Assembly: GCA_038230835.1 (NCBI GenBank) | Contig: JBBRMM010000008.1 | Coordinates: 4,721-68,720 of the forward strand | Source: Gaiellales bacterium | GTDB taxonomy: Bacteria; Actinomycetota; Thermoleophilia; Gaiellales; JAICJC01 | Length of the DNA stretch: 64,000 bases | Reading direction: 5' to 3' | In this document: positions 8,407-64,000 of the stretch, piece after piece | Position numbering within the stretch: the stretch's first letter is position 1 | How the letters are laid out: each line of letters starts with the position of its first letter | The notes under the pieces: model-generated | Told to the model about the DNA's origin: nothing | Seen by the model: only the letters and a program-made list of their open reading frames with translations | Databases searched by the model: none | Translations under genes and position numbers: made by a program

Positions 8407-8419
8407 CACATGGGCTGGG

Positions 8420-8889: not shown

Positions 8890-8988
8890 TTTGCGGTCCT
8901 TTCAAGGGCACGTCCTCAGAGGGATCTACGACTCAACTGTAGCAGCGATCAGACCAGAGGCAATCCCCCGCCCCGCCAGGTCGGGCGC

Positions 8989-11530: not shown

Positions 11531-11609
11531 CCGGTCGGGTGGTCGGCGATCTGATCGCTCGCTTGGACCGAGGGCAGCGCCGACCTTGGCGATTGGGGTC
11601 TGCTCGGGC

Positions 11610-27347: not shown

Positions 27348-27648
27348 TCGATCGCTTACGCTCGACAGGCCCGCACTACTTCGATGTTAGCAAGCAACTA
27401 TCAGCCACATCGACGGTTTCCTCCTGAAGGGCGACTTCCTTGACGGGATTATGCGATCGTTACGGTGGCGGCTGGGGAGTAGCCTGTTTGGCCGCCCGCG
27501 GTGCGGCGGTAGCGCGCGCGAAACTGCCATGTGCCTTTGGCGAGCGTCGTTGAGGTTGACGTGGTGGTCTGGTCGACTCGGATTCCACCATCGCGGGCGT
27601 AAGATCCTCTTGTCGCAATTCGCAGGGTACCGGCCGAAGGAGCGTCAC

Positions 27649-30108
27649 GTGATCCTCCAGCAGTACTACCTTGGCTGCCTCGCGCACGCCTCCTATCTGA
27701 TCGCCGACCTGCAGAGCGGCGTGGCTGCGGTCGTCGATCCTCAGCGCGACGTCGACCAGTACCTGACCGACGCTCGCCGGGCGGGCGTTCGCATCGAGCA
27801 CGTCTTCCTGACGCATTTCCACGCCGACTTCCTGGCCGGCCATCTCGAGCTGCGCGACCGCGCGGGAGCGAAGATCTATCTGGGCCGAAGCGCCCAGGCC
27901 GAATACGAGTTCACGCCGGTGGGAGATGGCGATGTTGTCGAGTTGGGCTCGCAGGTGCGACTCCAGGTGCTGGAAACGCCCGGCCACTCGCCCGAATCGA
28001 TCTCGATCCTGGTATTCGATCTGACTGAGGACGCTAAGGCCCCGGCGGCGGTGCTGACCGGCGACACGCTCTTTATCGGCGATGTCGGCCGACCTGACTT
28101 GCGCGCCTCGCTGGGCTGGAGCGCGCAAGAGCTCGGCAGCATGCTTTTTGACTCGCTGCGCGACAAGCTGCTGCCGCTGCCCGACGCGACCCTTGTCTAC
28201 CCTGCGCACGGGGCGGGTTCGCTGTGTGGCAAGCACCTCAGCAGCGACACCGTCTCGACGATCGGCGAGCAGCGCTTGCACAACTACGCCCTGCAACCCA
28301 CCAGCCGCGACGAGTTCATCCGCATCGTCACTGCTGATCAGCCGGAGACGCCGAGTTACTTCTCGTACGACGCGGTCCTGAACGCCCAGGAGCACCCGAC
28401 GCTTGAGAAGGCGCTCGAGCGCGGGCTGCGTCCGCTCACGCTGGAGCAGACGCTCGAGGCAAAGTCGGCCGGCGCCCAGATCCTCGACACCCGCGATCCG
28501 GCCGACTTCGCGGGCGCGCACCTGGCCGGTAGCATCAATATTGGGCTGGGCGGAAGCTACGCGACGTGGTGCGGCACGCTGCTCGATCGAGAGCGGCCGG
28601 TGGTGGTCGTGACCGACCTTGGCCGCGAACTGGAGTCGGCTATGCGGCTGGGCAGGATCGGGTTCGACATCGTGGCCGGCTACCTCGGCCGCGGGTTGCT
28701 GGCGCTGGAGGGCCACCCCGACCTCGTCGCGAGCGCCGAGCGGGTCACCGCGAGCGCGCTTGAGGAGCAGCTCCTCTCGCCGGCCCCGCCAGTGTTGCTC
28801 GACGTCCGGTCGCAGCTCGAGTGGGACGAGAAGCACGTCGACGGGAGCATCAACGTTCCGCTGGCGCACCTGGCGGACCGGATCGACGAGCTGCCACACG
28901 ACCGCCTCATGGTCACACAGTGCTCAAGCGGCTACCGCTCCTCGATCGCCGCCAGCATCCTGCTCGCGCAGGGATTAACGCAGGTCGAGGACATGGTCGG
29001 CGGCCTCGACGCCTGGGTGTCGTCGGGGCTCGAGACGGTGCAGCCAGTCGGCGTCCGGCACCTGATCCTGCACCGCGAGGATCCGCACAACGCGGAGGCG
29101 CCGGTCGCGCTCCTGTGCGGATCCACCGTCACCGCATCCGAGACGTTCTTCGTCCGCAACCACGGGCCTGTGCCGGTGGTCGACGCCGGCGCTTACCGGC
29201 TGACGTTGGCCGGCGCCGTATCGCGGCCGCTAGCGCTTTCGATCGGCGAGCTGCGGGAGCAATTTGCGCACACCACGGTGACCGCCACGATCGCATGCGC
29301 CGGCAACCGCCGCGGCGAGTTGAACAGCTTCGCGCACGTACCCGACGCGATCCCGTGGGGCGCCGGCGCGATTGGCACCGCGACCTGGACCGGGATCCGC
29401 CTCGGCGACCTGCTCGAAGCGGTCGGGCCGACGGACGACGCCCGCCACGTCGCATTCGTGGGGCTCGATCAGGTCGAGGCCGAGGGCGGGCTCGCCTCCT
29501 TTGCAGGCTCGATCCCGCTCAAGAAGGCGCTTTCGCCGGAGGTACTGCTCGCCTACGAAATGAACGGCGCGCCCCTACCGGCCGAGCACGGCTTCCCGCT
29601 GCGCGCCATCATCCCCGGCTATATCGGCGCTCGCAGCGTGAAATGGCTCTCGGCCATCTCGGTGCAACCCGCGCCCTCGGCCAGCTTCTTCCAGATCACC
29701 GACTATGCACTCGACGGCGAACCGCTGGGCGAACTGCCGCTCAACTCGGTGGTATGCCGGCCGGCGTCTGGCGATACCGTCTCCGGTCCCTCGATTGTGG
29801 CGGAGGGCTACGCGCTGGCCGGCGGGCCGCGCTCGGTGGAGCGGGTCGAGGCGTCGCTCGACGGCGGCGTGACCTGGATACCGGCGTCGCTGGCGGCCAG
29901 TCGCGAGCCGTGGGCATGGCGTTTGTGGAGGGTGGAGCTGGAAATCCCGGAGGGTTCCTGCGAGCTGATCGTGCGGGCCTTTGACTCGGCGTCCGGCGGA
30001 CAGCCCGAGGCGCTTGCCAGCGTCTGGAACCCCCGCGGCTACATGAACAACGCCTGGCACCGGGTGTCGTTCGACGTCGCCCCAGTCGGCCGCATCACGG
30101 CCGCCTGA
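27649..30108 (+). CDS. Fusion protein: persulfide dioxygenase (MBL fold), rhodanese (inactive), rhodanese (CSSGYRS), and sulfite-oxidase-type molybdopterin domain
   Basis: ORF 27451..30108, trimmed to GTG 27649 (GAAGGAG RBS 7 nt upstream). Motifs: LTHFHADFLAGH, TPGHSPES, MVTQCSSGYRSS, FFVRNHGPVPV, IACAGNRRGE, LLAYEMNGAPLPAEHGFPLRAIIPGYIGARSVKWL. Confidence 0.85.
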   Translation: MILQQYYLGCLAHASYLIADLQSGVAAVVDPQRDVDQYLTDARRAGVRIEHVFLTHFHADFLAGHLELRDRAGAKIYLGRSAQAEYEFTPVGDGDVVELGSQVRLQVLETPGHSPESISILVFDLTEDAKAPAAVLTGDTLFIGDVGRPDLRASLGWSAQELGSMLFDSLRDKLLPLPDATLVYPAHGAGSLCGKHLSSDTVSTIGEQRLHNYALQPTSRDEFIRIVTADQPETPSYFSYDAVLNAQEHPTLEKALERGLRPLTLEQTLEAKSAGAQILDTRDPADFAGAHLAGSINIGLGGSYATWCGTLLDRERPVVVVTDLGRELESAMRLGRIGFDIVAGYLGRGLLALEGHPDLVASAERVTASALEEQLLSPAPPVLLDVRSQLEWDEKHVDGSINVPLAHLADRIDELPHDRLMVTQCSSGYRSSIAASILLAQGLTQVEDMVGGLDAWVSSGLETVQPVGVRHLILHREDPHNAEAPVALLCGSTVTASETFFVRNHGPVPVVDAGAYRLTLAGAVSRPLALSIGELREQFAHTTVTATIACAGNRRGELNSFAHVPDAIPWGAGAIGTATWTGIRLGDLLEAVGPTDDARHVAFVGLDQVEAEGGLASFAGSIPLKKALSPEVLLAYEMNGAPLPAEHGFPLRAIIPGYIGARSVKWLSAISVQPAPSASFFQITDYALDGEPLGELPLNSVVCRPASGDTVSGPSIVAEGYALAGGPRSVERVEASLDGGVTWIPASLAASREPWAWRLWRVELEIPEGSCELIVRAFDSASGGQPEALASVWNPRGYMNNAWHRVSFDVAPVGRITAA

Positions 30109-32430: not shown

Positions 32431-32910
32431 TCAGGCGGGCTGCGAGGCCGCGAGCTTGTCAAGCTCGCCCAACGCCCACGAGAGGTGCTGGTCGGCCTTC
32501 ACGTTGCGCTTGGCCGCGGCCAGCTTGCCGTCGGCATCGATCAGGAACCCCGAGCGGATGATGCCGTGGTAGGTCTTGCCGTAGTTCTTCTTCTCGCCCC
32601 AGGCGCCGTATGCCTCGGCCACCTTGTGGTCACTGTCCACCAGCAGCGGGAACGGCAGCTGGAACTTCTCCTTGAAGCGGCGGTGCGACTCGATCGAGTC
32701 CGGGCTCAGTCCGAGCACCACGGCCCCCGCGCGCTCGAAGTCGGGCCATCCGTCGCGGATGTCGCAGGCCTGCCGGGTACAGCCGGCGGTGTCGTCCTTG
32801 GGGTAGAAGTAGAGCAGCACCGGCCGGCCGCGGAGCGACTCCAGCGACACCTGCTCGCCGGTGTCTGACTCGAGCGTGAAAGTGGGGGCGGGCTGTCCGG
32901 GTTCGACCAT
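32431..32910 (-). CDS. bcp: Thiol peroxidase Bcp (peroxiredoxin)
   Basis: C-terminal 159 aa of the long ORF 32431..34194, from MVEPGQPAPTF. Motif FYPKDDTAGCTRQAC. The upstream part of that ORF is antisense to an MFS gene and was rejected. Confidence 0.9.
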   Translation of the reverse strand: MVEPGQPAPTFTLESDTGEQVSLESLRGRPVLLYFYPKDDTAGCTRQACDIRDGWPDFERAGAVVLGLSPDSIESHRRFKEKFQLPFPLLVDSDHKVAEAYGAWGEKKNYGKTYHGIIRSGFLIDADGKLAAAKRNVKADQHLSWALGELDKLAASQPA

Positions 32911-32937
32911 GATCGGGGCAGTGTAGCGTCCGCGGCC

Positions 32938-34167
32938 ATGACCCCTCTGCTGGCTCCCCTGGCTGAGCGAGACTTTCGCCGCTACTTCTGGGGGCAGGTG
33001 CTGTCGTCGGTCGGCTCCGGTCTGCACACCGTCGCGCTGGGCTGGTACCTGCTCGAGCGCACCGGGTCGGCCACCGACGTCGCGCTGGTGTGGACGGCGA
33101 CCTGGGGCGCGGGCCTGGTGGCGCTGCCGCTGAGTGGCCCGCTGGCGGATCGCTACTCGCGCCGCTTCGTCTGCATCGGCGCCGACCTTGCCCGGTTGGC
33201 CACCGTCGGCGCACTGGCCGGGCTGGCATTCGCCGGCAACCTGCCGCTGTGGGCTGTGTACACCTTCACGTTCGTGGTGGGATTCGGGCACAGTGTGTTT
33301 TGGCCCGCGATCACGGCTCTTCTGCAGGAGATCATCCGGCCGGATCAGGTCGAGGCCGCGAGTGGGCTGGTGGAGGTCACGTTCCAGGTCGGTACCCTCA
33401 CCGGGGCGGCGTTCGGAGGCCCGGTGCTGATCCGGTACGGGCTCGGCTGGGCGCTCACGATCGACGCCGCGACCTACGCGGTGTCGGCGATCGCGCTGCT
33501 CAGCCTGCACCACCGGCCCGCCAAACGCGAGCACCACGCCCCGGTGGCGGCGATCGTTCGCGAGGGGCTGGCCTATCTGCGCTCGCAACCGACCGTCGCG
33601 GGGTTCGGGATCGTCAGCGTGATGCCGTGGGTGGCCACCATCTGCCTGAACGTGGTGTCGGTGGCCTATGTGCTGCAGGTGATGCACCGCAGTGCCACGG
33701 TGTACGGGCTGGGGGACATGATCTACGGGCTGGGTGCGGTGGTCTCGGGCTTCCTGGCGGCGCTGCTGGTGCTGCGGCTGGGGGCGTCGTCGGCGATGCG
33801 GTCGGTGGTGGTCGGACTGCTCGCCGTGTACGTGGTGCTGATCTGGGGGCCGACGCAGGTGGCCGTGTACCTGGGGCTGATGCTGGCGGCCGGGTTCTGT
33901 TCGTCGGCGTTTCGGGTGATGGCGAACTCGGTGCTGTTCCGGGTCGTGCCCAACGAGGTGATGGGCCGTACCAGCGCCACCTTCCTGCTGGCCTCGATGA
34001 TGATGCAGGTGCTGGCGACGCTCGCGGTGGGTCCTCTGGTCAACGCGCACGGCGCGCGCGGCGGCTTCGTGCTGCTGGCCGCGATCGTGCTGGCGTCGCT
34101 GCTCGGCCTGATCCTGCTCGCACCGCGGCTGCGGCTGCGGCCGGAACCTGCGCGCGAGAGTGATTGA
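32938..34167 (+). CDS. MFS transporter
   Basis: 409-aa ORF with about 12 TM helices: FRRYFWGQVLSSVGSGLH.... Confidence 0.85.
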   Translation: MTPLLAPLAERDFRRYFWGQVLSSVGSGLHTVALGWYLLERTGSATDVALVWTATWGAGLVALPLSGPLADRYSRRFVCIGADLARLATVGALAGLAFAGNLPLWAVYTFTFVVGFGHSVFWPAITALLQEIIRPDQVEAASGLVEVTFQVGTLTGAAFGGPVLIRYGLGWALTIDAATYAVSAIALLSLHHRPAKREHHAPVAAIVREGLAYLRSQPTVAGFGIVSVMPWVATICLNVVSVAYVLQVMHRSATVYGLGDMIYGLGAVVSGFLAALLVLRLGASSAMRSVVVGLLAVYVVLIWGPTQVAVYLGLMLAAGFCSSAFRVMANSVLFRVVPNEVMGRTSATFLLASMMMQVLATLAVGPLVNAHGARGGFVLLAAIVLASLLGLILLAPRLRLRPEPARESD

Positions 34168-34541
34168 TAGCGTGCCGCGCGATGCCGATCGCACATGCCG
34201 TCGTGGGCTCGCTCCTGATCGCCGCCAACCTGGTGGTGGCTGTCTGGGGCTACCTCGCCTATCGCCGCGACCGCCCGCCCGGGCGTTGGTTCATGCAGTT
34301 GCTCGCGCTCGCCCAGACGCTCGTCCTTGCCCAGGCAACGCTCGGGCTCGTGCTGCTGGGCGAGGGTCGCGAGCCGGCCGACCGGCTGCACTTTGTGTAC
34401 GGCCTGCTGCCCCTGCTGGCCGTCGCCTACCCGTATGCTCTGCGCGGTGAGGATGGCCGTCGCAACCTGCTCCTGTTCACCGTCGGATCGGCGCTGGTGG
34501 CCGCGCTTGGCATCCGCGCGTTCATGACGGGCCCGCACTGA
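34164..34541 (+). CDS. Small integral membrane protein, unknown function
   Basis: 125-aa ORF with 4 predicted TM helices, translationally coupled to its neighbours. Confidence 0.6.
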   Translation: MIACRAMPIAHAVVGSLLIAANLVVAVWGYLAYRRDRPPGRWFMQLLALAQTLVLAQATLGLVLLGEGREPADRLHFVYGLLPLLAVAYPYALRGEDGRRNLLLFTVGSALVAALGIRAFMTGPH

Positions 34542-43373: not shown

Positions 43374-44368
<995 letters not shown>

Positions 44369-44372
<4 letters not shown>

Positions 44373-45514
44373 GGACTGTCGCGGAGCTTCCGGTCGAGGG
44401 TCGCCGGGTGCTCGTGCGGGCCGACCTGAACGTTCCGCTGCGCGACGGGCAGATCACCGACGATGCCCGCATCCGGGCGTCGCTCCCCACCATCCGTCAC
44501 CTGCGCGGACGGGGCGCCGAGGTCGTGGTGTGCTCCCACCTGGGACGGCCCGGCGGGGAGGTGCGGCCCGAGCTGTCGCTGCGCCCGGTGGCACTGCGCC
44601 TGGCCGAACTGCTGGGTGAGCCCGTGGCCTTTGGGGACGAGCGAGGCCCGGTGAGGCTGCTCGAGAACCTCCGCTTCGATCCCCGTGAGGAGCGCAACGA
44701 CCCAGCGCTGGCCGCCGAACTGGCGGCCGAGGCCGACCTGTACGTGAACGACGCGTTCGGCGCGGCCCACCGGGCGCACGCCTCCACGGAGGCTGTCGCA
44801 CACCTCCTGCCATCTGCCGCCGGGCTGTTGATGGCGGCGGAGCTGAGCGCGTTCGCGAAGCTGCTGGGCGATCCCGAGCACCCGTTCGTGGTGGTGGTGG
44901 GCGGGGTCAAGGTGGCCGACAAGATCGGTGTCATCGACCGCTTCACCCGGCTGGCCGACAGCGTCCTGATCGGCGGTGCGATGGCCTTCACCTTCCTCGT
45001 CGCGCAGGGCGTCGGCGTCGGCGCCTCGCGGCACGAGGACGCCGAGGGACAGCGGATCGCGCGCGAGGCGCTCGCCGCGGCGGCGGAGCGCGGCTGCGAG
45101 CTGCTGCTGCCGACCGACGTGGTGGCCGCCGACCGCTTCGCCGCCGACGCGGTCGTGCGCTCGGTCGCAGCCGATGCCATTCCCGATGGCTGGATGGGCC
45201 TGGACATCGGGCGGCAGACTGCAGCCGCCTACGGGGCACGGCTGCGTGCGGCCCGCACGATCTTCTGGAACGGGCCGATGGGCGTGTTCGAGCTCGAACC
45301 GTTCGCGCACGGCACGCTGGCGGTGGCCCGGGCGGTCGCCGACTCGACGGCGACCTCGGTCGTCGGCGGTGGCGACTCGGTGGCCGCTGTCAACGCGGCT
45401 GGGGTGGCCGACCAGATCACGCACCTGTCCACCGGCGGGGGAGCCGCGCTCGAACTGGTCGAGGGGCGCACACTGCCCGGAGTGGCCGCGCTCGAGCAGG
45501 CGGCGGTGCGATGA
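44369..45514 (+). CDS. pgk: Phosphoglycerate kinase
   Basis: ORF 43829..45514, trimmed to GTG 44369 (GTGA overlap with gap). Sequence [11 protein letters not shown]... and [10 protein letters not shown]. Confidence 0.95.
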
Positions 45515-52432: not shown

Positions 52433-53334
52433 CGGAGCGCGGCCGCGCCCGCGTCGAGCTGGCCCTGATCGCGGCGGCGTGGGGGTCGGTTGCGGTGATC
52501 GTGCGGGCGGTGTCGCTGCCGGCGGCGGCGATCACGTTCTACCGGGTGTCGATCGCCGCCGCGGCGATCGCGTTCGGCGTGCTTGCGACCGGCGGCGTTC
52601 GCAGCCTGATCCCGCGCGCCGGCCGGCGCTGGCTCGTGCTGCTGGGGTCTGTCCTGGCCGTGCACTGGCTGCTCTATTTCGAGGCGATCAAGCTCTCGTC
52701 GGTGCCGCTGGCGGTGCTGCTGGTGTACACCGGGCCGATGTTCATCGCCCTGCTGGCGCCGGTGCTGACGGGGGAGCGCCCCAGCCGTGTGACGTGGCCG
52801 GCACTGGCGGCCGGATCCGTCGGAGTGGCCGTCGTGGCCACCGACCACAGCCATGCGCTGCACGCCAGTGGGCAGGCGCTTGCGGCCGGGCTGGGGGCGG
52901 GCTTCTCGTTCGCGCTGCTGATGATCACCGCCCGCAGGGTCGCGCGGGACGTCGGCCCACCGGTGTTCGTGTTCTGGGAGACGGCGGTTGCCTCGCTGCT
53001 TCTGGCACCCCTGGCGTTCGCGGGCCGCGTGCTTCCGCCCAACGCGTCGTGCGTGGTCGGGGTGCTCGCGCTCGGCGTCGGCGCCACGGCCGTTCTGGGC
53101 CTCCTGTTCGCGCGCGTGATGCGCCACGTCGACGCACCCAGCGCGGGTGTGCTGATGTTCGTCGAGCCGGTGTCTAGCGTGCTGTTGGCGTGGCTGTTCC
53201 TGTCCGAGCGGCCCAGCGCGCGCACCATCGTGGGTGGTCTGATGGTGCTCTCGGCCGGGCTTGCGGTGGTACGCGACGACGTGGTGGCGGTCACCGCAGG
53301 CGGAGTGGAATCGGTTAGGCTGGGGGGTCAGTGA
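52429..53334 (+). CDS. EamA/DMT-family transporter
   Basis: Frame of ORF 51649..53334, from the GTG overlapping the argS stop. 10 TM helices in a duplicated EamA pattern. Confidence 0.8.
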   Translation: MTERGRARVELALIAAAWGSVAVIVRAVSLPAAAITFYRVSIAAAAIAFGVLATGGVRSLIPRAGRRWLVLLGSVLAVHWLLYFEAIKLSSVPLAVLLVYTGPMFIALLAPVLTGERPSRVTWPALAAGSVGVAVVATDHSHALHASGQALAAGLGAGFSFALLMITARRVARDVGPPVFVFWETAVASLLLAPLAFAGRVLPPNASCVVGVLALGVGATAVLGLLFARVMRHVDAPSAGVLMFVEPVSSVLLAWLFLSERPSARTIVGGLMVLSAGLAVVRDDVVAVTAGGVESVRLGGQ

Positions 53335-53669
53335 GCACTCCCGCTGCCCCGACCGTGTTCGAGATCGAGGAGCTCGAGAACGAACTCGCTGGCCGAGACG
53401 ACGGCGACACCGGTGACGGCGACTGGTACGCGGTGCGCACCGACCCCTGGCCGTGTCCCACCTGTGGAGTCGCCGAGGACTACATCACCGCCTGCCATCA
53501 CGTGGTGGTCGCACCCTCGCGGGACGATCTGATCGACCACGCCGCGCGAGCCTCGCAGGTCGGTCGCAATCCGAAGATCGTTCGCTACGACGACTCCAAG
53601 CCGACGATCACGCTGTTCCAGTGGCGGGCCCTGGGCCGGCCCGTGCACGGCGTCAAGAAACTCGGATAG
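53331..53669 (+). CDS. Hypothetical protein (acidic N-terminus, CPTC...CH motif)
   Basis: 112-aa ORF with ATGA coupling to the upstream gene. No family recognised. Confidence 0.55.
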   Translation: MSTPAAPTVFEIEELENELAGRDDGDTGDGDWYAVRTDPWPCPTCGVAEDYITACHHVVVAPSRDDLIDHAARASQVGRNPKIVRYDDSKPTITLFQWRALGRPVHGVKKLG

Positions 53670-53694
53670 GGTCACGCTTCACCATCAGGAGGAC

Positions 53695-54108
53695 GTGATG
53701 TTGAGCGAATTCCGGGCGTTCCTGTTGCGCGGGAACCTGGTCGAACTGGCGGTCGCCGTCGTGATCGGGGTGGCATTCAACGCGGTGGTGACCGCGCTCG
53801 TGGCCGACATCGTGACGCCGATCATCGGGGCGATCGGCGGCAAGCACGATTTCTCGTCGCTGCGGTTCACCGTCAACGGTTCCGCGTTCCTGTACGGCGA
53901 CTTCCTGAACCGGCTGATCTCGTTTGTGACGATCGCGGCCGCCGTGTTCTTCGTGGTCGTCAAGCCGATGAATGCCCTCAACGCGCGGCGCCAGCCCGCC
54001 GCCGACGCGGGCACGCCGATGCGGGACTGCCCGGAGTGCCTGTCCTCGATACCGGCCGCCGCCCGCCGCTGTGCTCAGTGCACCGCGGAAGTCTCACCCG
54101 CCGTCTGA
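53695..54108 (+). CDS. mscL: Large-conductance mechanosensitive channel with C-terminal CxxC...CxxC zinc-ribbon-like tail
   Basis: 137-aa ORF with MLSEFRAFLLRGNLVELAVAVVIGVAFNAVV.... The tail is RDCPECLSSIPAAARRCAQCTAEV. Confidence 0.9.
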   Translation: MMLSEFRAFLLRGNLVELAVAVVIGVAFNAVVTALVADIVTPIIGAIGGKHDFSSLRFTVNGSAFLYGDFLNRLISFVTIAAAVFFVVVKPMNALNARRQPAADAGTPMRDCPECLSSIPAAARRCAQCTAEVSPAV

Positions 54109-54132
54109 CCCGTCGACAGCGCTGGTGGCGGC

Positions 54133-54879
54133 TCAGGTGACACGGCGGATCATCGTGATCGACCACCACGCGAGCGGCGAGCGGCTGACGACCGCGCCGG
54201 TGTGCGGCGCGTGGAGGACCAGACCATGCCCGAGGTAGATACCGACGTGACCGCCGCCGTTCGAGATCACGAGGTCGCCGCGGCGCAGGGCGTGCCGGGA
54301 AACCCGCTGGCCGAGATGCATCATCGCCTGCGAGGAGTGGGGGAGTCGAACGCCGACGCGACCGTACGCCCACATCACGAGGCCCGAGCAGTCGAACCCG
54401 ACCCGTGGAGAGGAGGCGCCGTACACGTACGGCTTACCCAGCTGGGAGAGCGCGATCAACGTCGCCTCGGCGTTACGGGCCGCGATCCGCGCAAGTCGCC
54501 CGTACCGCACTCCGCGCCTGACCCAGACCTGGCGCAGGTAGCCGAGGTAGGCGATGCTTCGGGTGCGCAGAATCTCGCGCGGCGAGCGCACAGGAATGCC
54601 GGCGAGGCGTGCCTCGTGGCGTGCGTGGCCGTACGCTCCGAACGCTCCGGCGCGAGCGTGCTGCAGGAGCAGCGTCGGTAGCGCGACCGGAGTGGCGATG
54701 ACGCCGACAGACGGCGACGGTGTCGGGGACGATTCGGGGCCGGCGGCGAACGCCGCGGGCACGCCCATACAGAGCATGAGCACAGCGAGTATGGCAACGA
54801 TGCGAGGCAGGATGAGCCCTTCGTTAGCTGACGTGAGCGGCCGCTGACATGACCCGGTTGCCGGCGGTACAGCGAGCAT
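54133..54879 (-). CDS. Secreted NlpC/P60-family peptidoglycan endopeptidase
   Basis: 248-aa ORF with a signal/TM and LGKPYVYGASSPRVGFDCSGLVMWAY...GHVGIYLG. Confidence 0.8.
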   Translation of the reverse strand: MLAVPPATGSCQRPLTSANEGLILPRIVAILAVLMLCMGVPAAFAAGPESSPTPSPSVGVIATPVALPTLLLQHARAGAFGAYGHARHEARLAGIPVRSPREILRTRSIAYLGYLRQVWVRRGVRYGRLARIAARNAEATLIALSQLGKPYVYGASSPRVGFDCSGLVMWAYGRVGVRLPHSSQAMMHLGQRVSRHALRRGDLVISNGGGHVGIYLGHGLVLHAPHTGAVVSRSPLAWWSITMIRRVT

Positions 54880-55150
54880 GTCCGCGGAGAGGAGACCTGA
54901 CGCCGAAGTGAGATCGACGGCGATAACGGACTGACGCCTGTGATGTGGTCATGACCAGCCTCGGCGGGTAGGTTCGCGCCCTCAACCCCTGTTACCGCAA
55001 AGTGGGGAGTCAGATCACCGCTGCGGCCAGCCTCGGACACCCCAAAACCCCGCCAGATGGGGTAGTGGTCCTCGCTGGCGAACACGCGATCCCGGCCTGG
55101 GTGCCCGACGGCGACACGCTGCGCCTTCGCACCGTAAACTGCGTGGTGCG

Positions 55151-55223
55151 GCGGACGTAGCTCAGTTGGTAGAGCGTTGGCTTCCCAAGCCAAAGGTCGC
55201 GGGTTCGAGACCCGTCGTCCGCT
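55151..55223 (+). tRNA. tRNA-Gly (anticodon CCC)
   Basis: GCGGACG TA GCTCAGTTGGTAGAGC G TTGGC-TTCCCAA-GCCAA AGGTC GCGGG-TTCGAGA-CCCGT CGTCCGC T. Confidence 0.9.
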
Positions 55224-55331
55224 CTTTCCAAGCCAAATCAGCCGGACTTTGTGACACTCGGTGATTCCCCAACACTCGGTTGAGGTTGGGTCACCCCTGT
55301 GGCCAGGCAGACCCCGCCAGCGCGCTCCGGC

Positions 55332-55820
55332 TCAGGGTGGAAGGAAGGCGAGAACCTTTTCATGCGGCCACTCGGTGGTGAGAATGCGACCCAGGTTGGG
55401 CTCCGTGCTCGCGATGATGTAGGGAATCTCGTCAGGATCGCGGGGAGCCGCGGAGACGGATGCGCCGAGTAGCACGTCGCCCCATGGTGGCGCTGCGTTT
55501 GCCAGGAGGCCGGTCAAGCGAAGGTTCACGTATTCGGGCAAGTGCCAGACCCGCCAGGCGTTGTGGAGATCGTCTGACTCGATTTCGATCCAGACGCCGT
55601 AGGTCACAGTGAAGCCCCCCGTCAACGCCACCGGCATCAACGTGCGGATGAAGAAACCCACGTCCTTTACGGCGAGCAGCGGGTCGTCTCCCCAAACTCG
55701 TCCTTCGAGTTCAGAGTCGGGGATGGCGAAGACTGAATCAGGCCGCTTGAACTTGACCTGGCGGTTGTGGTCGTCGAGTGGGCGGCCACATGTTGGGCAG
55801 TGTCGGCTTGCTGTGGGCAT
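55332..55820 (-). CDS. DUF2199-like protein with N-terminal CxxC
   Basis: 162-aa ORF: MPTASRHCPTCGRPLDDHNRQV...GFFIRTLMPVALTGGFTVTYGVWIEI.... Confidence 0.7.
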   Translation of the reverse strand: MPTASRHCPTCGRPLDDHNRQVKFKRPDSVFAIPDSELEGRVWGDDPLLAVKDVGFFIRTLMPVALTGGFTVTYGVWIEIESDDLHNAWRVWHLPEYVNLRLTGLLANAAPPWGDVLLGASVSAAPRDPDEIPYIIASTEPNLGRILTTEWPHEKVLAFLPP

Positions 55821-56702
55821 CCAGTCAGCCTACTAGCCGGGATGTTGGCCGGCAGGCGCAGAGGTACCGCGAGCCCGCATCGCTCTGGACGCTCCACCAC
55901 AGCCTCAGCCAGTTCTTCAACCCGAGCGTGGGCGGCAGGCGGAACGCGGCCGCACCGCGCTGCTCACAACGTCCTCGTAGACGCCGACGATGAACCGGAG
56001 CTCGCGCTCACCGATAGGCGGCCTGTTGGGCGCGTCGGTGATCGTCTTCTACACGGCGATTGACGCATCACGTAGCACCCGCTCGTCAGCCCACCGCCGT
56101 TCGGGCAGAGGGACCGTTGGCTTGCACGGTGATCTTAGTCATGGTATGTTCGGCGGATCCGCGGGCGGCGAAGGCTGACCCGACGACCTCTGTCAGGGGG
56201 CACAATGGTCGAGCAGTCGTCGGTTTCGCGTTCGAAGTGGGGCTGGGCGCGGTGGATGGTGGTGGTGTTTGCGGTCATGGCGGTTGTGGGAGGTGGTAGC
56301 GCGTCGGTCGCGTCGGCGCGTGGGCTTCACACGTTCGTTTCGCACAGCGCGCGGGTTGGGGCTGGGTCGCGGATTCCTGGGGCTGCTGCGAATGAGATCA
56401 CGGGGTATATGACGGAGCACGGGGGGCAGGTGCAGTCAGCGGCGGCGGTGTACGTCGATTATTGGGGTTGGACGGGGTCTGACCCGGTGGGTGAGCAGTC
56501 GGTGTTGGAGGGCTTCTTGAATCACGTTGGTGGGAGCGGTTGGTTGGGGACGGTCGATCAGTACGGCGCGGGCAATCCCAGCGGGCTGCTCAAGGGCACA
56601 TGGACCGATACCACCAACACGATCCCCACCTCGCCGACTCAAGCCCAGTTGGCTGCGGAGGCTGACCAGGCAGCGCTTCACTTCGGGGTCGCGGCGACCG
56701 CG

Positions 56703-57026
56703 GTGCAGACGATCTCCGAGACGGGTACGGTGACAGGCGGGTCGTTCACGCTCACGTATATGGGCGCGCCGGCGCAGACAACGGCGGCGATCGTCTGGAA
56801 CGCCTCGGCCGCGCAGGTGCAGGCAGCACTGCAGGCGCTGTCCCAACTCGGCTCGAACATCACGTGCAGTGGAGGCCCACTTTCAACAGTCGCGGTCGCG
56901 TGCACGTTCGGGAAGAACTTTGCGGGCCTGTCGTGGCCTGCGCTCGTGCCGACGTCGTCGCTGACCGGCTCGAAGGCGAAGGTGAGTGTTGTGGTCAACG
57001 TCAAGGGAGGGGAGACCCCGGCGAGC
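56703..57026 (+). repeat. About 108-aa inserted module, copy 1 (TGGSFTL...TTAAIVWNASAAQVQAAL...CSGGPL)
   Basis: QTISETGTVTGGSFTLTYMGAPAQTTAAIVWNASAAQVQAALQALSQLGSNITCSGGPLSTVAVACTF...SLTGSKAKVSVVVNVKGGETPAS. Paralogous to 58136..58465. Confidence 0.6.
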
Positions 57027-58135
57027 CTTCAGAACGTGCAGATCGTGGTGGCGACCCCGCCGGGCAACGACCCGGATGGCACCAACACGAAGTTCTGCGG
57101 GTTTCACTCTTAGGCGACCTTCGCCGCGTATACAGCGCTTCCGTATGCGGGTGACATCCCGAATTGTGCTGCGGGTGGGCTGATCAATCCCGTGAACGCC
57201 GCGACCATGGTGGAAGGCCACGAGTTGGCCGAGACGATCACCGACCCCGGCGCGTGCACGGCTTGGCATGACGATAACACCCCGCCGCCCACCCAACCGT
57301 GCAACGAGCTGGGCGACAAGTGCCAGAACGGGCCGACCGGGGCCGTTCTCTACAATCCGGTCAGCATGAATGGCCAGTCGTACTTTGTGCAGCCTTTGTG
57401 GAGCAACCTCATCAACGATTGCTCCTATGGCACCACGTACGACTCCGTCCAAACGGCGTTTCAGGCCAACACGGGGAACCTGTGGATCGTTCCGGGCCTG
57501 GGGGGCACCACGTTGGGGATTACGCCGCGGACGAGTCCCAGCCTGGCCCATCTGACGCTGGGCGGGTATGAGGCGGCGTTCAACGCTGATGGTGGGGGCG
57601 GCTTGTGGAATACGGGATTCGGCAACGGGTCGGACACCTACACTTGGAACGCCGGGTTAGACCCTCATGCCAGTCCAGGTATCTGCCCGCTCCAGGCCAG
57701 TGGTGGCTACGAAGACGTGTTCAACTCCAACGTCAACACCCTCTGGAGCGCACAGGGTGTCCCGCTCGCTCTTATCCATACGCCCACCAGCCTCCAATCG
57801 TCGGCGGGGCCGCTGACCATCGCGGCGGGTACCTCTCCCAGTGATACATGCGTCACGAGTGGAGGGTGGGACACCGCTTGGCATGTTTCGGACGATTCGC
57901 TGTGGCGGGGAGGGTCGGTCCGGGCACCGTTGGTGGTTTCAGTGGAACATCGCTCGGTGTTTATCCGGGGACGAGTCCTTCGATCGTTGTCCAGCCCGCG
58001 ACAGACCAGGGTCTGCTGATTGCGTTCCATACGTCCGGCGGGTGGTTGGGGTACCTCGATAACACCGGTACGCTGAGAAGACCACAGGCGTGTAATGGCG
58101 CGTTCTGCCCGATTTCCAACGGCGCAAACGCGACG

Positions 58136-58465
58136 CAGACGATCTCGGCGACGGGGACCGTGACCGGTGGCACGTTCACGCTCGCGTTCAACTGGGCAGG
58201 GCGGGGTGCTGGCCAGACGACGGCTGCGATTCCCTGGAACGCGACAGCTGCCCAGCTGCAGGCGGCGCTGGTGGCGCTGTCTTCGATTGGCACAGGGAAC
58301 CTCACCTGTACGGGAGGGCCGCTCCCCGCCACCGCTATGCAATGCACGTTCGTTGGAGCGTTGGCGAAGCAGCCCGAGCTGGCGATGAAACCTGCCAAGT
58401 CGCTTACGGGTACCAAGCCCAATATCAAGGTGACGGCGAATAATGCGGGTGCGACGCCGGCCAGT
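58136..58465 (+). repeat. About 110-aa inserted module, copy 2
   Basis: QTISATGTVTGGTFTLAFNWAGRGAGQTTAAIPWNATAAQLQAALVALSSIGTGNLTCTGGPLPATAMQCTF...SLTGTKPNIKVTANNAGATPAS. Confidence 0.6.
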
Positions 58466-59108
58466 CCCAGCGTGTGCTTCCTGGCCAGCCAGGGCTATGC
58501 CGCCGAGTTCGCGTGGCGCGGCCCGAATAACCAGCTCATGACCTATGGCCCCGCCCAGGAGGGTGGGTTGCTTGACTGGTCGGAGCTGGGCTATCCGGGC
58601 AAGAGTGCGACGGGGGTTCCGGGCACGGTTGATCCCGGGTCGGACCCGGCCATCACGTGTCCCGCGAGTGGTGGGTATCAGGTCGCGTTCCAGGGGAGCG
58701 GTGGCAAGCTGAACGCGGTGGGTGCTGGCGACACCAACACTGGCTATGGGATGGCGCGGTTCACCAGCCCGGCGGAGGCGTCGAGGACCCAGTAGCACCT
58801 CTTCACTCCGCGATCAGCGTGGTGTCCCGGCGCGCCGAGACTCGGCCGGTGTGCGCTCGGGACGTCGTTCAGCCTCAAAAGGGCGAGCGCGCTTCCCAAG
58901 GCTGCGTGTTCGACGTCGAGGTGAAGACGCCCGGTGCCGGCCTCAGCGGCTTTGCCACCGTCCCCGGCGCGACCATCCTTCGGCTTGTCGGAAGCGACGA
59001 CCAATGACCCCCTCATCGAACGCCGCAACACCAGCTGACACCCTCCCCGGGCACCCCGCGCGCTGTAGACTCGGGCCCGACTGGATAGCCCGAGGGATGA
59101 GGACAGAA

Positions 59109-59741
59109 ATGGCTCACGAACTCCCACCGCTTCAGTACAGCTACGACGCGTTGGAGCCGATCATTGACGAGGCGACGATGCGGCTTCACCACGACAAGCA
59201 TCACGCCACCTACGTCAAGAACCTGAACGCGGCGCTGGAGGGGTCGGAGTGGGCTGACCGGCCGATGGAGCAGTTGCTCGACAACCTGGATCTGCTGCCC
59301 AAGGACAAGCAGGCGGTCGTGCGAAACAACGGCGGCGGCCACGCCAACCACTCGCTGTTCTGGGAGGTCATGAGCCCGGACGGTGGCGGTGAGCCCGAGG
59401 GTGTCCTCGCCAAGGCGGTGACCGACACGTTCGAGACCTTGGCCGAGTTGAAACGGCAGCTGACGGACGCCGGCACCCGCCAGTTCGGAAGCGGCTGGGC
59501 GTGGCTCGTCCACGATGGCACCGGCTTGGTCGTTGTCTCCACGCCAAACCAGGACTCGCCGCTCATGAGCGGCCACACTCCGCTGCTGGGCATCGATGTC
59601 TGGGAGCACGCCTACTACCTGCGGTACCAAAACCGCCGTCCGGACTATCTGGATGCGTGGTGGAACGTCGTCGACTGGTCGGCCGTCGGCGAGCGGTTGA
59701 CGCGAGCGGTCGGTCGGCCTGCCGCTGTCGGAGGTAGCTGA
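59109..59741 (+). CDS. sodA: Fe/Mn superoxide dismutase
   Basis: ORF 58722..59741, trimmed to [17 protein letters not shown]. Motifs HHDKHH and DVWEHAYY. Confidence 0.95.
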
Positions 59742-60403
59742 TGGTAAGAGTCGCGGTCATCTATTACAGCGCCACCGGGAACGTGCACGCGATGGCGCAG
59801 GCGGTCGCGCTGGGCGCCGAGCAGGCGGGTGCGGAGGTGCGGCTGCGCCAGGTGGAGGAGATCGCATCGGAGATGGTGATCTCGCAGAACCAGCACTGGG
59901 GTCGCCATCGAGCATCGGTGCGCGACCAGCCGACCGCGACGTTGGACGATCTGGAGTGGGCCGATGGAGTCGCATTCGGCACGCCGACGCGGTTTGGGAA
60001 CGTGTCGGCGCAGCTCAAGCAGTTCATGGACCAGGCGGGACGGCTGTGGCAGGAGGGCCGTCTGGCCGATAAAGCGGCGACGGCGTTCACATCCTCCCAG
60101 ACGCCCCATGGTGGTCAGGAATCGACCATCCTCGCACTCTGCAACACCTTCTACCACTGGGGCATGGTGATCGTCCCGATCGGCTACACGGTGCACGAAG
60201 TGTTCGCGTCGGGCGGCAACCCGTACGGCGCGTCCTACACGAGTGCCGATCGCGTGCCCGGACGGCTGCCCGACGACACGCTCAGCATCGCCCGCGCCCA
60301 GGGCGCGCGCCTCGCCCGGTACGCAGCGGTGATCGCGGCCGGTCGGGCAGCCGGCGAGCTCCCAGCGCCCAGCGGAACGCTGCCGTTTCCGAATAGGGTG
60401 TGA
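59741..60403 (+). CDS. wrbA: NAD(P)H:quinone oxidoreductase, WrbA-type flavodoxin-like
   Basis: 220-aa ORF with VAVIYYSATGNVHAMA...GVAFGTPTRFGNVSAQLKQFMD...HGGQEST. Confidence 0.85.
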   Translation: MVRVAVIYYSATGNVHAMAQAVALGAEQAGAEVRLRQVEEIASEMVISQNQHWGRHRASVRDQPTATLDDLEWADGVAFGTPTRFGNVSAQLKQFMDQAGRLWQEGRLADKAATAFTSSQTPHGGQESTILALCNTFYHWGMVIVPIGYTVHEVFASGGNPYGASYTSADRVPGRLPDDTLSIARAQGARLARYAAVIAAGRAAGELPAPSGTLPFPNRV

Positions 60404-60553
60404 GCCCTGATGATGCGACCGGGATTAGCTCGGCGCGGCCCGTGGCGCGAATGGGCAGTCCTGCCCGATTTGGACGAGGGAGGGACCGGGGAGTTGCGCC
60501 GAGTGCCGCACGAGCCGAAGCTCCCCATCGGTAGGTAATCTGGGGCCGCCGAA

Positions 60554-60805
60554 TCACGGCGGACGAGCTGCGTCGACGACGTCGACGGGCTGGATCGGTG
60601 CCCCGGCGGCCCGAGCTGTCTGAGCCGCGCACGCCGGACACACCGCTCGCTCGATCTCCCCGGAGCCCGAGCGCTCAATCCGCCAGTCCGGTGGTGGGGA
60701 ACCGGCGCAACTGCCGTGGCAGGCCTCCGTCTGCCCGCAGTCGCAGCGGTACACGGCGCACGTGTACGGATACGCCACATCGGCCACTGCGAACTCGACG
60801 GCCAT
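60554..60805 (-). CDS. Small Cys-rich hypothetical protein
   Basis: ORF 60554..60877, trimmed to MAVEFAVADVAYPYTCAVYRCDCGQTEACHGSC...CPACAAQ. Third-position GC is coding-like, but no family was recognised. Confidence 0.35.
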   Translation of the reverse strand: MAVEFAVADVAYPYTCAVYRCDCGQTEACHGSCAGSPPPDWRIERSGSGEIERAVCPACAAQTARAAGAPIQPVDVVDAARPP

Positions 60806-60858
60806 GCCGGTATCGTTGCACGCCTGCGACGGCGGAGCAAGATGGGGTGGGATGCGAG

Positions 60859-62325
60859 ATGGCGGTTGTCGATCCAACGGCGGGCGACGAGCAAAGGCTG
60901 CTTCGGCGCCGCCAGTTGACGCTGATCGCGACCATCCTCGGATCGTCGCTCGCCTTCGTCGATGGGTCGGTCGTCAACATTGCCCTGCCCACCATCGGGC
61001 GTGATCTGCACGCGGGCCTGGCCGCACAGCAGTGGGTGATGCTGTCGTATTCGCTGGCCGTCGCGTCGCTCTACATCGTGTCGGGCGCGCTGGGCGACCG
61101 GTTTGGACGGCGCCGGCTGTTCATGGTCGGAGTGGCCGGGTTCGCGGGCGCGTCCGCACTGGCCGGTGTTGCTCCCAGTACCGGCCCGCTGATCGCAGCG
61201 CGTGTCCTTCAGGGCGTGGGAGGCGCGTTGCTGACCACCAACAGTCTCGCGCTGCTGCGTGCGACGTACGCCGAGGACAGCGGTCGCGCCGTCGGCTTGT
61301 GGACGGCCTGGAGCGGCATCGGCTCGATGCTCGGCCCACCGCTGGGCGGTCTGCTGGTGCAGTACGCATCCTGGCGGTGGATCTTCCTCATCAACCTTCC
61401 CGCCGCCGCGCTCGCGCTCGCGCTCGCGTCGGCGGGGCGAACGGACGAGCACTTGCCGGAAAAGCCGCGGCCCGTGCAGGCGGTCGGAGGGGCTGCGATC
61501 GCGATCGCCTTCGGCGGTCTCACCTATGCGCTGATCGAGGGCGCCCAAATCGGGTTCGCGTCGGTCTGGTGGGCATTCGCGCTCTCGATCGGAGGACTGG
61601 CGGTTCTGATCGTCGCCGAGCGGCGGGGTGCAAACCCGCTGCTACCGGTCGAACTGCTGCGCGAGCGCCTGTTCGTGGTCGCCAACGTCTACACGTTGTT
61701 GGTCTATGCGGGCCTCGGCGGGATGACGTTCTACCTCGCCCTCTACCTCCAGTCGGGCGCCGTCGGGTACACGCCCAGCAGGGCGTCGCTCGTGTTCGTG
61801 CCGATCAGCATCGTGATGTTCTTCCTGGCAGCCAGGTTCGGCCGCGCCGCAGACCGGTACGGCCCCCGAAGGTACCTCACAACCGCTCCGCTGGTCATGG
61901 CCGCCGGATTCGCCCTGCTCGCAACCGTGACCGGAACCAACCCACTGGCGCCGCTGCCAGGTGTGCTGACGCTCGCCTTGGGCCTGGCGATGCTGGTGGC
62001 GCCGATCACAGCCACGGCGCTCAAGGCGGCGCCCGATCGGCACGCCGGACTCGCCGCCGGGGTTAACACGACCGTCTCTCGGATCGGCGGTTTGGTCGCG
62101 ACACCCGCCCTGGGGATCGTCATAACGGTCGTGTTCACAGCCTCCGCGGCCAACCATCACATCGATCCGTTCGCCAAGCACCTCAGTCCCGAGCAGCGCC
62201 GGGCCACCATCGACGCGTTCCGAGCAGCGATCGCCGCATCAATGCTGCTGTGCGTCGCCGGCGCGGCGCTAGCGGCCTGGGGGCTTGGAGCCGCGCGTGG
62301 TCCGGGCGGGGGTGAGTCGAGTTGA
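60859..62325 (+). CDS. MFS transporter, DHA2 (EmrB/QacA, 14-TM) type
   Basis: ORF 60598..62325, trimmed to MAVVDPTAG. Sequence FVDGSVVNIALPTIGRDL...GALGDRFGRRRLF. Confidence 0.85.
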   Translation: MAVVDPTAGDEQRLLRRRQLTLIATILGSSLAFVDGSVVNIALPTIGRDLHAGLAAQQWVMLSYSLAVASLYIVSGALGDRFGRRRLFMVGVAGFAGASALAGVAPSTGPLIAARVLQGVGGALLTTNSLALLRATYAEDSGRAVGLWTAWSGIGSMLGPPLGGLLVQYASWRWIFLINLPAAALALALASAGRTDEHLPEKPRPVQAVGGAAIAIAFGGLTYALIEGAQIGFASVWWAFALSIGGLAVLIVAERRGANPLLPVELLRERLFVVANVYTLLVYAGLGGMTFYLALYLQSGAVGYTPSRASLVFVPISIVMFFLAARFGRAADRYGPRRYLTTAPLVMAAGFALLATVTGTNPLAPLPGVLTLALGLAMLVAPITATALKAAPDRHAGLAAGVNTTVSRIGGLVATPALGIVITVVFTASAANHHIDPFAKHLSPEQRRATIDAFRAAIAASMLLCVAGAALAAWGLGAARGPGGGESS

Positions 62326-62388
62326 AGGCAGGGATCGGCTGGTAGACAAGCCTCTGACTCCCCGGCGGAGTCGCCGTGTCATCATTGG

Positions 62389-63042
62389 GTGGTGGTGACG
62401 TCGTCACGTCCGTCGAATGCCGCCGTCCGCTGCATGGTCGTGGACGATCACGCCGCGCTGCGCGAGGGCGTGCGGGCGGTCCTTGTCGCCGAGCACGACC
62501 TTGAGGTCGTCGGCGATGCTGCGTCCGGCGATGCGGCGGTCGAGATGGCGGCCAAGCGGCTACCGGACGTGGTCGTCATGGACATCCAATTGGGGGAGGG
62601 CATCGGCGGCTTCGAGGCCACGAGGCGGATCCTGGCCGCCCGGCCGCAGGTGGGAATCGTCATCCTCACGGGCTACGGTGAGCGCGGGCTGCTGACGGAG
62701 GGGTTGGACTGCGGGGCCCGGGGCTACCTGCTGAAGGACTCGCCGCCGGCCGACATTGTTCGCGCGGTGCGCACCGTGGCGGCCGGCGGCTCGTATGTGG
62801 ATCCGTCGCTGACGTCGCAGTTGATCAACCCATCGTCGGGGCGTCTCACGACCCTGACCGACCGCGAGCGCGAGATGCTGGCCGTGCTCTCCGAAGGGCT
62901 CACGAGTCCGCGCATCGCCCAGCAGCTCTTCCTGAGCGAGGAGACCGTGAGGACGCACGTCCGAAACGCCATGCGCAAACTGGAGGCGGACACCCGCACC
63001 CAGGCCGTTGCGATGGCGCTTCGGATGAACGTGATCGTGTGA
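62389..63042 (+). CDS. NarL/LuxR-family two-component response regulator
   Basis: 217-aa ORF with a receiver domain (VVDDH...VVVMDIQL...YLLKD) and a LuxR HTH (LTDREREMLAVLSEGLTSPRIAQQLFLSEETVRTHV). Confidence 0.9.
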   Translation: MVVTSSRPSNAAVRCMVVDDHAALREGVRAVLVAEHDLEVVGDAASGDAAVEMAAKRLPDVVVMDIQLGEGIGGFEATRRILAARPQVGIVILTGYGERGLLTEGLDCGARGYLLKDSPPADIVRAVRTVAAGGSYVDPSLTSQLINPSSGRLTTLTDREREMLAVLSEGLTSPRIAQQLFLSEETVRTHVRNAMRKLEADTRTQAVAMALRMNVIV

Positions 63043-63067
63043 GGAACGGTCGCGCCGTTCGGCGCGC

Positions 63068-64000
63068 TTACACGGTGAACCGGGATGTGAGCTGCTCGAT
63101 CGTCTGAGCGGTCGACGCGAGCTCCTGTGCCTGCGCGGCGATCTGCTCGGAGGATGCGGAGGTTTCCTGCGTGGAGGCGGACACCTGCTCGGTCGAGGCG
63201 GATGACTGCTCGGCGACCGCGGCGATCTCGGCTGTCGCGTGGGCGATCTGCGTCACCTGTCCCGTGATCTGCTCTACGGACTTGCCCAGGGCGTGGAACG
63301 CCTCGCGGGCCCGTTGCACCGTCTCCTGGCTGGCGGTTGTCTTCTGGGCGCCGTCTGCGACGACCGCGACCACATGCTCGGTGTCACTTTGGATCTCGCC
63401 GATCAGCCCGCCGATCGACTGGGCGGCGTGCTGCGATTCTTCGGCCAGCTTCCTGACCTCCTCGGCGACGACAGCGAATCCGCGTCCCTGCTCGCCGGCG
63501 CGGGCGGCTTCGATCGCGGCATTCAGCGCCAGCAGGTTCGTCTGATCCGCCAGGCTCGAGATCGTCTCCACGATCCCGCCGATCTGCTCGCTTTTGGCGG
63601 CGAGCGCGCTGATGGCGCTCGTCACCTCGCTGGTCTGCGCACCGAGCTCTGCCATCGCCGCCTGTGCTTCGTCGGCCGTTGCCGCACCCTGTAGGGCGAT
63701 CTCCGTTGCCTGGCCTGCCGACTGGGCGGCGGTGTCGGCGCTCTGACGTGCTCCGGAGACCATCGTCACCTGCCGCTCCGCGCCTTGGGCGACGTCGGAC
63801 ACCGCGCCGGCGATCTCGGCGGTTGCTCGGCCGGTCTCCTCCGACGCCGATGCCATCTGCTGGCTCGCTCCCGCGATCGCCCGTGCAGCCACGTCCATCT
63901 CGCCGATCATCCGCGCCAGCTCGGCCCGCATCTCGTTGTACGCCTCGATGGTGGCGACGGAGGCGTCGCGAATCTCGTTCACCGCGGTTGCTGCCGCGCC
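63068..64000 (-). CDS. Methyl-accepting chemotaxis protein (C-terminal signalling domain; 5' end beyond the window)
   Basis: ORF 63068..63982 carries the MCP hairpin core [38 protein letters not shown]. The reading frame stays open to the window edge. Confidence 0.85.

Follow-up and report, generated by a model that had tools for sequence, protein, structure and literature searches.

A probable young pseudogene for a lectin-type protein with two nested Bxb1 CTE-like domains in a Gaiellales-like bacterium

The stretch of DNA analysed here (the window) comprises 64,000 nucleotides of contig JBBRMM010000008.1 from a Gaiellales bacterium (assembly GCA_038230835.1, positions 4,721 to 68,720 of the forward strand), and the gene in question occupies positions 56205-58795 of its plus strand. 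This locus is probably a single gene which was inactivated recently and which records a rare double domain insertion, that is, a young pseudogene in a Gaiellales-like bacterium. The ancestral gene would have encoded a Sec-exported protein with a mature form of ~825 aa, built of an N-terminal domain (N-domain) remotely similar to Phi_1/EXORDIUM proteins and of a following seven-bladed lectin propeller of the PLL type, and belonging to a widespread soil-bacterial family. In the present lineage a ~107-aa display domain resembling the CTE domain of phage Bxb1 would have been inserted into a surface loop of this protein and then copied to a second loop of the same protein, two acquisitions from one source being the less likely course. 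A nonsense mutation (the TAG is one step from CAG or TAY) together with the loss of 1 nt in a G-rich run would finally have broken the frame, and translation would now end after 302 aa. As judged from the sequence, the ancestral protein was presumably secreted and its function has presumably been lost.

Two entries in the table of open reading frames (ORFs), 56205..57113 (302 aa, ATG start) and 57192..58019, are translated in a common frame, and the TAG at 57111-57113, situated between ...TNTKFCGFHS and ATFAAYTALPY..., is the sole stop when 56205-58019 is read in one frame. The third ORF, 57848..58795, is in the -1 frame relative to the 56205 frame. The region 57900-57925 reads ctgtggcggggagggtcggtccgggc and includes the G-rich run cggggaggg; the 56205 frame gives here ...SDDSLWRGG and thereafter nonsense, and the -1 frame gives ...VGPGTVGGFSGTSLGVYPGTSPSIVV. 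One G added within the run joins ...SDDSLWRGG to VGPGTVGGF.... In a plot of the GC content at third codon positions (GC3) the 56205 frame stays at 0.7-0.88 over ~56300 to ~57800 with no dip at the TAG, and after ~57950 the high signal moves to the 57848 (-1) frame and continues to 58795, which places the coding shift near 57905-57925. Since the homologues hold the N-domain and the repeats in one ORF and the GC3 signal runs through the TAG, the three ORFs are best explained by a single ancestral gene.

An earlier annotation of the window, made from the letters alone (below, the initial annotation), had described the locus in the same way, as one gene split by an in-frame TAG and by a frameshift due to one missing G at 57912-57914. 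It was right on almost every point; for the frameshift, the exact lost base is a reconstruction only. The protein was also considered secreted, in agreement with an N-terminus that displays, by inspection only, an n-region, an h-region and a VASA/RG site. The start codon at 56205 is preceded at 6–11 nt by a Shine-Dalgarno-like G-rich AGGGGG. The repaired protein of ~863 aa is predicted to consist of a signal peptide, an alpha/beta N-domain, a seven-bladed beta-propeller and two modules of ~107 aa (Table 1).

With the repaired 863-aa protein as query, 86 relatives were obtained, none of them above ~49% identity. When these are mapped by segment, ~55 carry the N-domain, ~30 the module only and none of them both. 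In seven relatives (P0001-P0004, P0006, P0010 and P0014) the N-domain and the same C-terminal repeats form one continuous protein, and the homologues read ...HFGxGxSVNVQIVVATP... uninterrupted where the window protein has module copy 1. The window protein keeps the family residue at all family-invariant columns, including those of GHELAETITDP, CxxH, EIGDKC and QPLWSN. The host family is found at no fewer than 569 loci (at least; GTDB species representatives) and is common in acid-soil bacteria, both within Actinomycetota (Kitasatospora, Catenulispora, Streptosporangiaceae, Gaiellaceae and Acidimicrobiales) and beyond them (Acidobacteriota, Dormibacterota and Eremiobacterota).

The N-domain is weakly related to Pfam family PF04674 (Phi_1). 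Ten of 18 family members match this profile at E<=1, the best of them at 3.4e-5 and always at profile positions ~176-230, which correspond to the GHExAExxTDP...EIGDKC region. Homologues scanned singly score 13.8-19.4 bits, under the Pfam gathering threshold of 25 bits; P0055 has a precomputed PF04674 match, and the window's own N-domain gives no match at E<=1. These alignments point to a remote homology rather than to membership. Of the initial assignment to a "CAWHS family akin to PHI-1/EXORDIUM", the kinship stands in this weak form and the family name does not, CAWHS being a motif. A sequence profile search of the PDB returned no credible solved structure for the N-domain, and in the Foldseek search with the full P0006 model the propeller matches fill the list and mask the fold of this domain. 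The invariant His, Glu, Asp and Cys residues of GHExAExxTDP, CxxH and EIGDKC make the N-domain a candidate metal binder. It also contains a lineage-specific insert, ACTAWHDDNTPPPTQPC (aa ~340-357 of the repaired protein), bounded by two extra cysteines, and a cysteine recurs at the same strand-D position in blades 2, 3, 5 and 6 of the propeller. This distribution of cysteines suggests that extra disulfides were gained before the gene broke.

The C-terminal repeats have a period of 42 aa and occur in six or seven copies in the homologues and in seven divergent copies in the window protein. The AlphaFold2 (AF2) model of the seven-repeat homologue P0006 has a mean predicted local distance difference test score (pLDDT) of 87.3 and consists of the alpha/beta N-domain and seven four-stranded blades. 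The top 22 matches of this model in the PDB (Foldseek) are the Photorhabdus propeller lectins PLL, PHL and PLL2-5, followed by fucose lectins of the AAL type; the PLL/PHL matches have E=1.5e-17 (TM 0.69) to 3e-15, template modelling (TM) scores of 0.66-0.70 over ~337 columns and a sequence identity of 16-21%. The closed propeller of the model and its similarity to PLL/PHL support the assignment of the C-terminal repeats to a seven-bladed PLL-type propeller, the fold being taken from the model of the homologue and transferred to the window protein by the alignment of its seven blades. The propeller or lectin-like blades supposed in the initial annotation can be specified in this way as seven 42-aa blades. 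By analogy with these lectins the propeller may bind sugars.

The two copies of the module share 54% identity over 85 aa (BLASTP, E=1e-16) and 58% over 106 aligned positions, so the earlier claim that one module of about 100 aa is present twice rests on a significant alignment. At the DNA level they are 78-80% identical over stretches of 64-68 nt; the similarity starts at ~56690/58120 and ends at ~57030/58470, and the flanks are unrelated. In a phmmer search module copy 1 matches PDB entry 9d93 chain Ma ("Tail tip cage, gp23") in three tandem copies with E=2.7e-13 and, weakly (E=0.35), the capsid protein of 9d9w. A fragment of the gp23 chain agrees at 100% with minor tail proteins of mycobacteriophages in cluster A1. 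The tail-tip protein of Bxb1 was reported to carry "three additional CTE-like domains" (PMC13252515). With a pLDDT of 87.7, the AF2 model calculated for the module from a 40-row alignment finds the Bxb1 tail tip and capsid as its top four PDB matches in Foldseek (query TM-score, TMq, 0.44-0.67), with phage Patience, tail-sheath outer domains, the Mu baseplate and flagellin D2/D3 among the further ones. In BFVD, a database of predicted viral structures, the top match is the major tail protein of Microbacterium phage Teamocil (TMq 0.81, root mean square deviation 1.4 A, 45% identity), and the next are major and minor tail proteins of actinobacteriophages infecting Mycobacterium and Gordonia. Sequence comparison and modelled fold agree in identifying the module as a Bxb1 CTE-like decoration domain, a kind carried in Bxb1 by capsid, tail tube and tail tip and elsewhere by many virion proteins of actinobacteriophages. 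In a tblastn search of cultured phages with module copy 1 a single weak match was obtained, to Skermania phage SPI1, and the link to phages is based on the profile, PDB and fold searches and not on direct tblastn. As to a dispensable, surface-exposed, antigenic or glycan-binding role, the literature considered concerns Bxb1 only (PMC8704799, PMC13252515). An adhesive or glycan-binding role of the modules may be supposed by analogy.

The domain is found in many other protein contexts. The PHROG profiles that contain it are those of major tail, tail sheath, minor tail and capsid families; it is nested inside Baseplate_J in P0057, P0066 and P0075, follows a major head protein C-terminally in P0080 and is present fourfold in the sheath-like P0008. 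On the cellular side it is combined with PATR repeats and a dockerin in P0213, an example of the giant, cellular-looking surface proteins among the matches of module alignment A2 (e.g. P0211, P0212, P0213), and three CTE-like modules stand with RTX repeats in the 862-aa P0058 (ENA contig_56145, 10001-12589). The gene of P0058 adjoins a TolC-like OEP gene and a DUF4347/RTX gene, and its product looks like a type I secretion substrate that uses the module in a cellular setting. The profile search with module alignment A2 in 1.84 billion representative proteins (clusters at 50% identity) gave 19,331 matches at E<=0.001, 10,729 at E<=1e-10 and 1,867 at E<=1e-30, with up to 45 copies in one protein of 7,591 aa. 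Pfam-A and NCBIfam hold no model for the module. The CTE-like domain family is very large and lacks a curated model, and many phage and surface proteins consequently remain unannotated. The mobile or insertable character proposed in the initial annotation thus applies at the protein level, where the module is met at C-termini, nested and in tandem in ~19,000 clusters; signs of a mobile element at the DNA level were not found.

The insertion sites were mapped on the P0006 model. Module copy 1 is set into the loop that connects helix 142-156 with strand 164-169 (the NVQIVV strand), and module copy 2 into the C-D loop of blade 5 (...NGANAT/module/SPSVCFL). No terminal inverted repeats and no target-site duplications were found at the module borders, and a DNA transposon is therefore not indicated; by default the insertion route is explained by illegitimate recombination. 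The module is absent from the best 80 of the at least 569 host-family GTDB loci (each with +-3 kb), and the N-domain is absent from the 8 metagenome loci whose modules are most similar (43-58% identity, two-module alignment as query), which are phage-like arrays or other contexts. No second case of N-domain and module combined is present in the databases searched.

Among the 93 copies compared, the two from the window protein are each other's nearest neighbours, with 58% identity between them and at most 54% to any other. Both have a Cys pair that is found in only 2 of the 91 other copies, and both have the TGTVTGG motif and the terminal TPAS. Because the copies are reciprocal nearest neighbours and have the rare Cys pair in common, the sequences favour one acquisition followed by intragenic copying, albeit by a modest margin. 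Independent capture of the two modules from phage or other donors is possible though unlikely: the identity between the copies (58%) is not far from that of the best outside copies (49-54%) and the flanks have no DNA similarity, and it is the reciprocal relationship, the Cys pair and the two common motifs that oppose such an origin. It is quite improbable that the CTE-like domain acts as a general display cassette insertable into surface loops of unrelated folds, pasted here by intragenic copying from the alpha/beta domain to the blade or back, with the two lesions possibly gating expression via readthrough and frameshifting.

The reality of the lesions follows from their recurrence. A Logan contig from run SRR24807096 is 100% identical to window positions 55167-64000 and one from run SRR19962015 is 100% identical to positions 53207-59354, in both cases with the TAG and the frameshift included. 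The gene calls of 302, 270 and 249 aa are the same in the Logan contigs of both runs, and the same three products are present on the NCBI contig (133,489 bp), so that both lesions are present in three assemblies, obtained from two sequencing runs. Because all three share them, the lesions are regarded as real and an assembly error as unlikely, on the basis of assemblies rather than of read-level frequencies. An organism with an intact gene that only appears broken through sequencing or assembly errors would agree with the G-rich run at the frameshift site and with the retention of all conserved residues; it is nevertheless very improbable in view of the identical lesions in the two Logan assemblies and the NCBI contig, and a point substitution creating a TAG would be an atypical assembler artefact.

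The TAG separates the CxxH motif from GHExAE, and the frameshift falls inside blade 4, both at sites where the homologues are uninterrupted. The window protein retains the invariant N-domain columns (32 of 32 in alignment A1, 24 in alignment A4), and no other lesions were seen. From the retention of every family-invariant residue it follows that either the inactivation is recent or the protein is still under selection. The latter would apply if the full-length protein were expressed by recoding, i.e. by low-level TAG readthrough combined with ribosomal frameshifting, in the manner of phage structural genes with programmed frameshifting. In its favour, the position taken by the TAG varies among the homologues and would probably accept any residue, the gene shows no further decay, and Ig-like domains on phage proteins are reportedly often attached by programmed frameshifts (Fraser et al. 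2006). Such expression is hardly to be expected all the same. TAG terminates 5 of the 20 ordinary ORFs inspected in the window, consistent with the earlier opinion that readthrough is unlikely; the shift falls inside a propeller blade and not at a domain boundary, no slippery heptamer is evident in cggggagggtcgg, and a gene with two independent recoding events would have no precedent. The idea of three separate functional genes (a secreted half-domain with a module and two cytoplasmic fragments), which follows the 302-, 270- and 249-aa products of the gene callers, is barely credible, as ORF2 and ORF3 start within a conserved domain or blade and have no signal peptide, the homologues are all single proteins and the break parts the invariant CxxH from the GHExAE motif.

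Several points weigh against a recently inactivated gene with a copied domain as described above. The two runs are independent as to sequencing and assembly, and both may stem from one culture or sample. The retention of the conserved residues equally fits a gene still expressed via recoding. When ~15 billion proteins are clustered at 90% identity, each of the three ORF products stands alone as a singleton, which leaves no intact orthologue for comparison, and scans of GTDB genomes and JGI metagenomes with the repaired protein as query returned nothing either. Because of this, the appearance of the gene before it broke and the identity of the base lost at the frameshift are reconstructions and not observations. 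The insertion geometry was derived on a homologue (~47% identity in the N-domain) and not on the window protein itself. Finally, a phage origin of both copies is likely, and yet the module occurs also in the giant cellular surface proteins P0213 and P0058.

Table 1. Elements of the broken gene in the order of their positions in the window.
Element	Positions	Strand	Basis or remark
Start codon and predicted Sec signal peptide (aa 1-38, MVEQSSVSRSKWGWARWMVVVFAVMAVVGGGSASVASA/RG)	56205..56318	+	translation; signal peptide by inspection
N-terminal alpha/beta domain, first part, to ...AALHFGVAATAV	56319..56705	+	alignment A1; family weakly related to Pfam Phi_1
Module copy 1 (aa 168-274, QTISETG...ETPAS), predicted Bxb1 CTE-like decoration domain	56706..57026	+	phmmer, AF2, Foldseek
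N-domain resumes (LQNVQIVVATPPGNDPDGTNTKFCGFHS), with invariant Cys/His of the CxxH motif	57027..57110	+	alignment A1
In-frame TAG within the N-domain at a variable position (homologues: Q, Y, A, V, T, R or N)	57111..57113	+	alignment A1, Logan contigs
N-domain, last part: invariant GHELAETITDP, EIGDKC, QPLWSN; Cys-flanked insert (ACTAWHDDNTPPPTQPC)	57114..57452	+	alignments A1, A4
Propeller blades 1-3 and first half of blade 4, 56205 frame	57453..57911	+	blade alignment, P0006 model
Frameshift zone, G-rich run cggggagggtcgg; an extra base restores ...SLWRGGVGPGTV...	57905..57925	+	between strands B and C of blade 4
Remainder of blade 4, then blade 5 strands A-C, -1 frame	57912..58135	+	blade alignment, GC3
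Module copy 2 (QTISATG...GATPAS), in the C-D loop of blade 5	58136..58465	+	BLASTP, blade alignment
Strand D of blade 5, blades 6-7, stop codon	58466..58795	+	ORF table, blade alignment

Pfam and NCBIfam scans of the three ORFs gave no matches, and a scan for promoters and terminators found nothing. The broken gene is flanked by tRNA-Gly(CCC) (55151-55224) and a DUF2199 gene (55332-55820, minus strand, directly upstream) on one side and by sodA on the other, with a flavodoxin/WrbA-type (FMN_red) gene and an NlpC/P60 gene also among its neighbours. The window is ordinary chromosome, with copA, copCD, pgk, a HemQ-like gene, a sulfite-dehydrogenase fusion, sodA and a gene of the flavodoxin/WrbA type (FMN_red). 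The GC content of the 56-58 kb stretch, 0.644, is the window minimum (0.65-0.74 elsewhere); no integrase or phage genes were seen, and an island origin is unsupported. The Pgk protein is 81% identical to proteins of Gaiellales metagenome-assembled genomes and 91% identical to one JGI metagenome protein.

An ORF of 885 aa at 27451-30108 (+) joins a metallo-beta-lactamase-fold (GloB-like) region, a rhodanese domain and the catalytic domain of a SorA-type sulfite dehydrogenase in an unusual three-part fusion for sulfur metabolism. Two long ORFs have a recognizable domain in the C-terminal part only, namely PrxQ at aa 430-576 of 32431-34194 (-) and Pgk at aa 181-559 of 43829-45514 (+); these are probably cases of mechanical ORF over-extension in GC-rich DNA and not real N-terminal extensions. 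Just past the window end the Logan contig carries, at its positions 7902-11237, genes for a methyl-accepting chemotaxis protein and for a multi-PAS histidine kinase. Chemotaxis genes are uncommon in Actinomycetota.

With the gene broken and found in a single uncultured soil lineage, its direct biological importance is small. All of its parts are of known kinds, and it is their combination that is unique in the databases searched. The locus offers a natural example of one small domain tolerated in loops of two unrelated folds within a single protein, which is relevant for thinking on domain insertion and for the engineering of display scaffolds. It also links a domain structurally described so far only on mycobacteriophage particles to cellular secreted lectin-type proteins, and this cellular occurrence would suit adhesion to carbohydrates or surfaces better than a function tied to the virion. 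The existence of a large, unmodelled, loop-tolerant family of display domains may be a more useful lesson than the gene itself.

The two modules resemble the CTE and CTE-like domains that Bxb1 has on gp14 (capsid), gp19 (tail tube) and gp23 (tail tip) (PDB 9d93, 9d9w, 9d9x) in sequence, in fold, in their size of ~100-105 aa and in their apparent accessory, surface-displayed character. In contrast to the phage domains they are nested in loops of a chromosomal, putatively Sec-exported lectin-type protein, the carrier being no virion protein, and both have the Cys pair rare in the phage copies. The propeller shares with the Photorhabdus PLL/PHL lectins (e.g. PDB 5c9o, 5mxe, 6rg2) the seven four-stranded blades and the conserved Trp per blade, as seen in the homologue model, whereas the 42-aa blades are fused here to an N-terminal Phi_1-like domain and the identity is as low as given above; the window blades are moreover much more divergent than those of the homologues, and blades 6-7 are devoid of the Trp. 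With Phi_1 (plant PHI-1/EXORDIUM) the N-domain has in common a consistent region of sub-threshold matches and an extracellular location of both groups, but the family scores remain under the gathering threshold and the window domain is without a match. The Ig-like, FN3 and Big_2 display domains of phages are likewise small, beta-rich accessory domains at termini or in loops of unrelated structural proteins; they differ in fold and family, and no Ig-type Pfam model matches the module. For the Ig-like domains this behaviour was reportedly described by Fraser et al. 2006. The outer domains of tail sheaths and the D2/D3 domains of flagellin, which Foldseek also lists for the module, resemble it in being nested outer domains.

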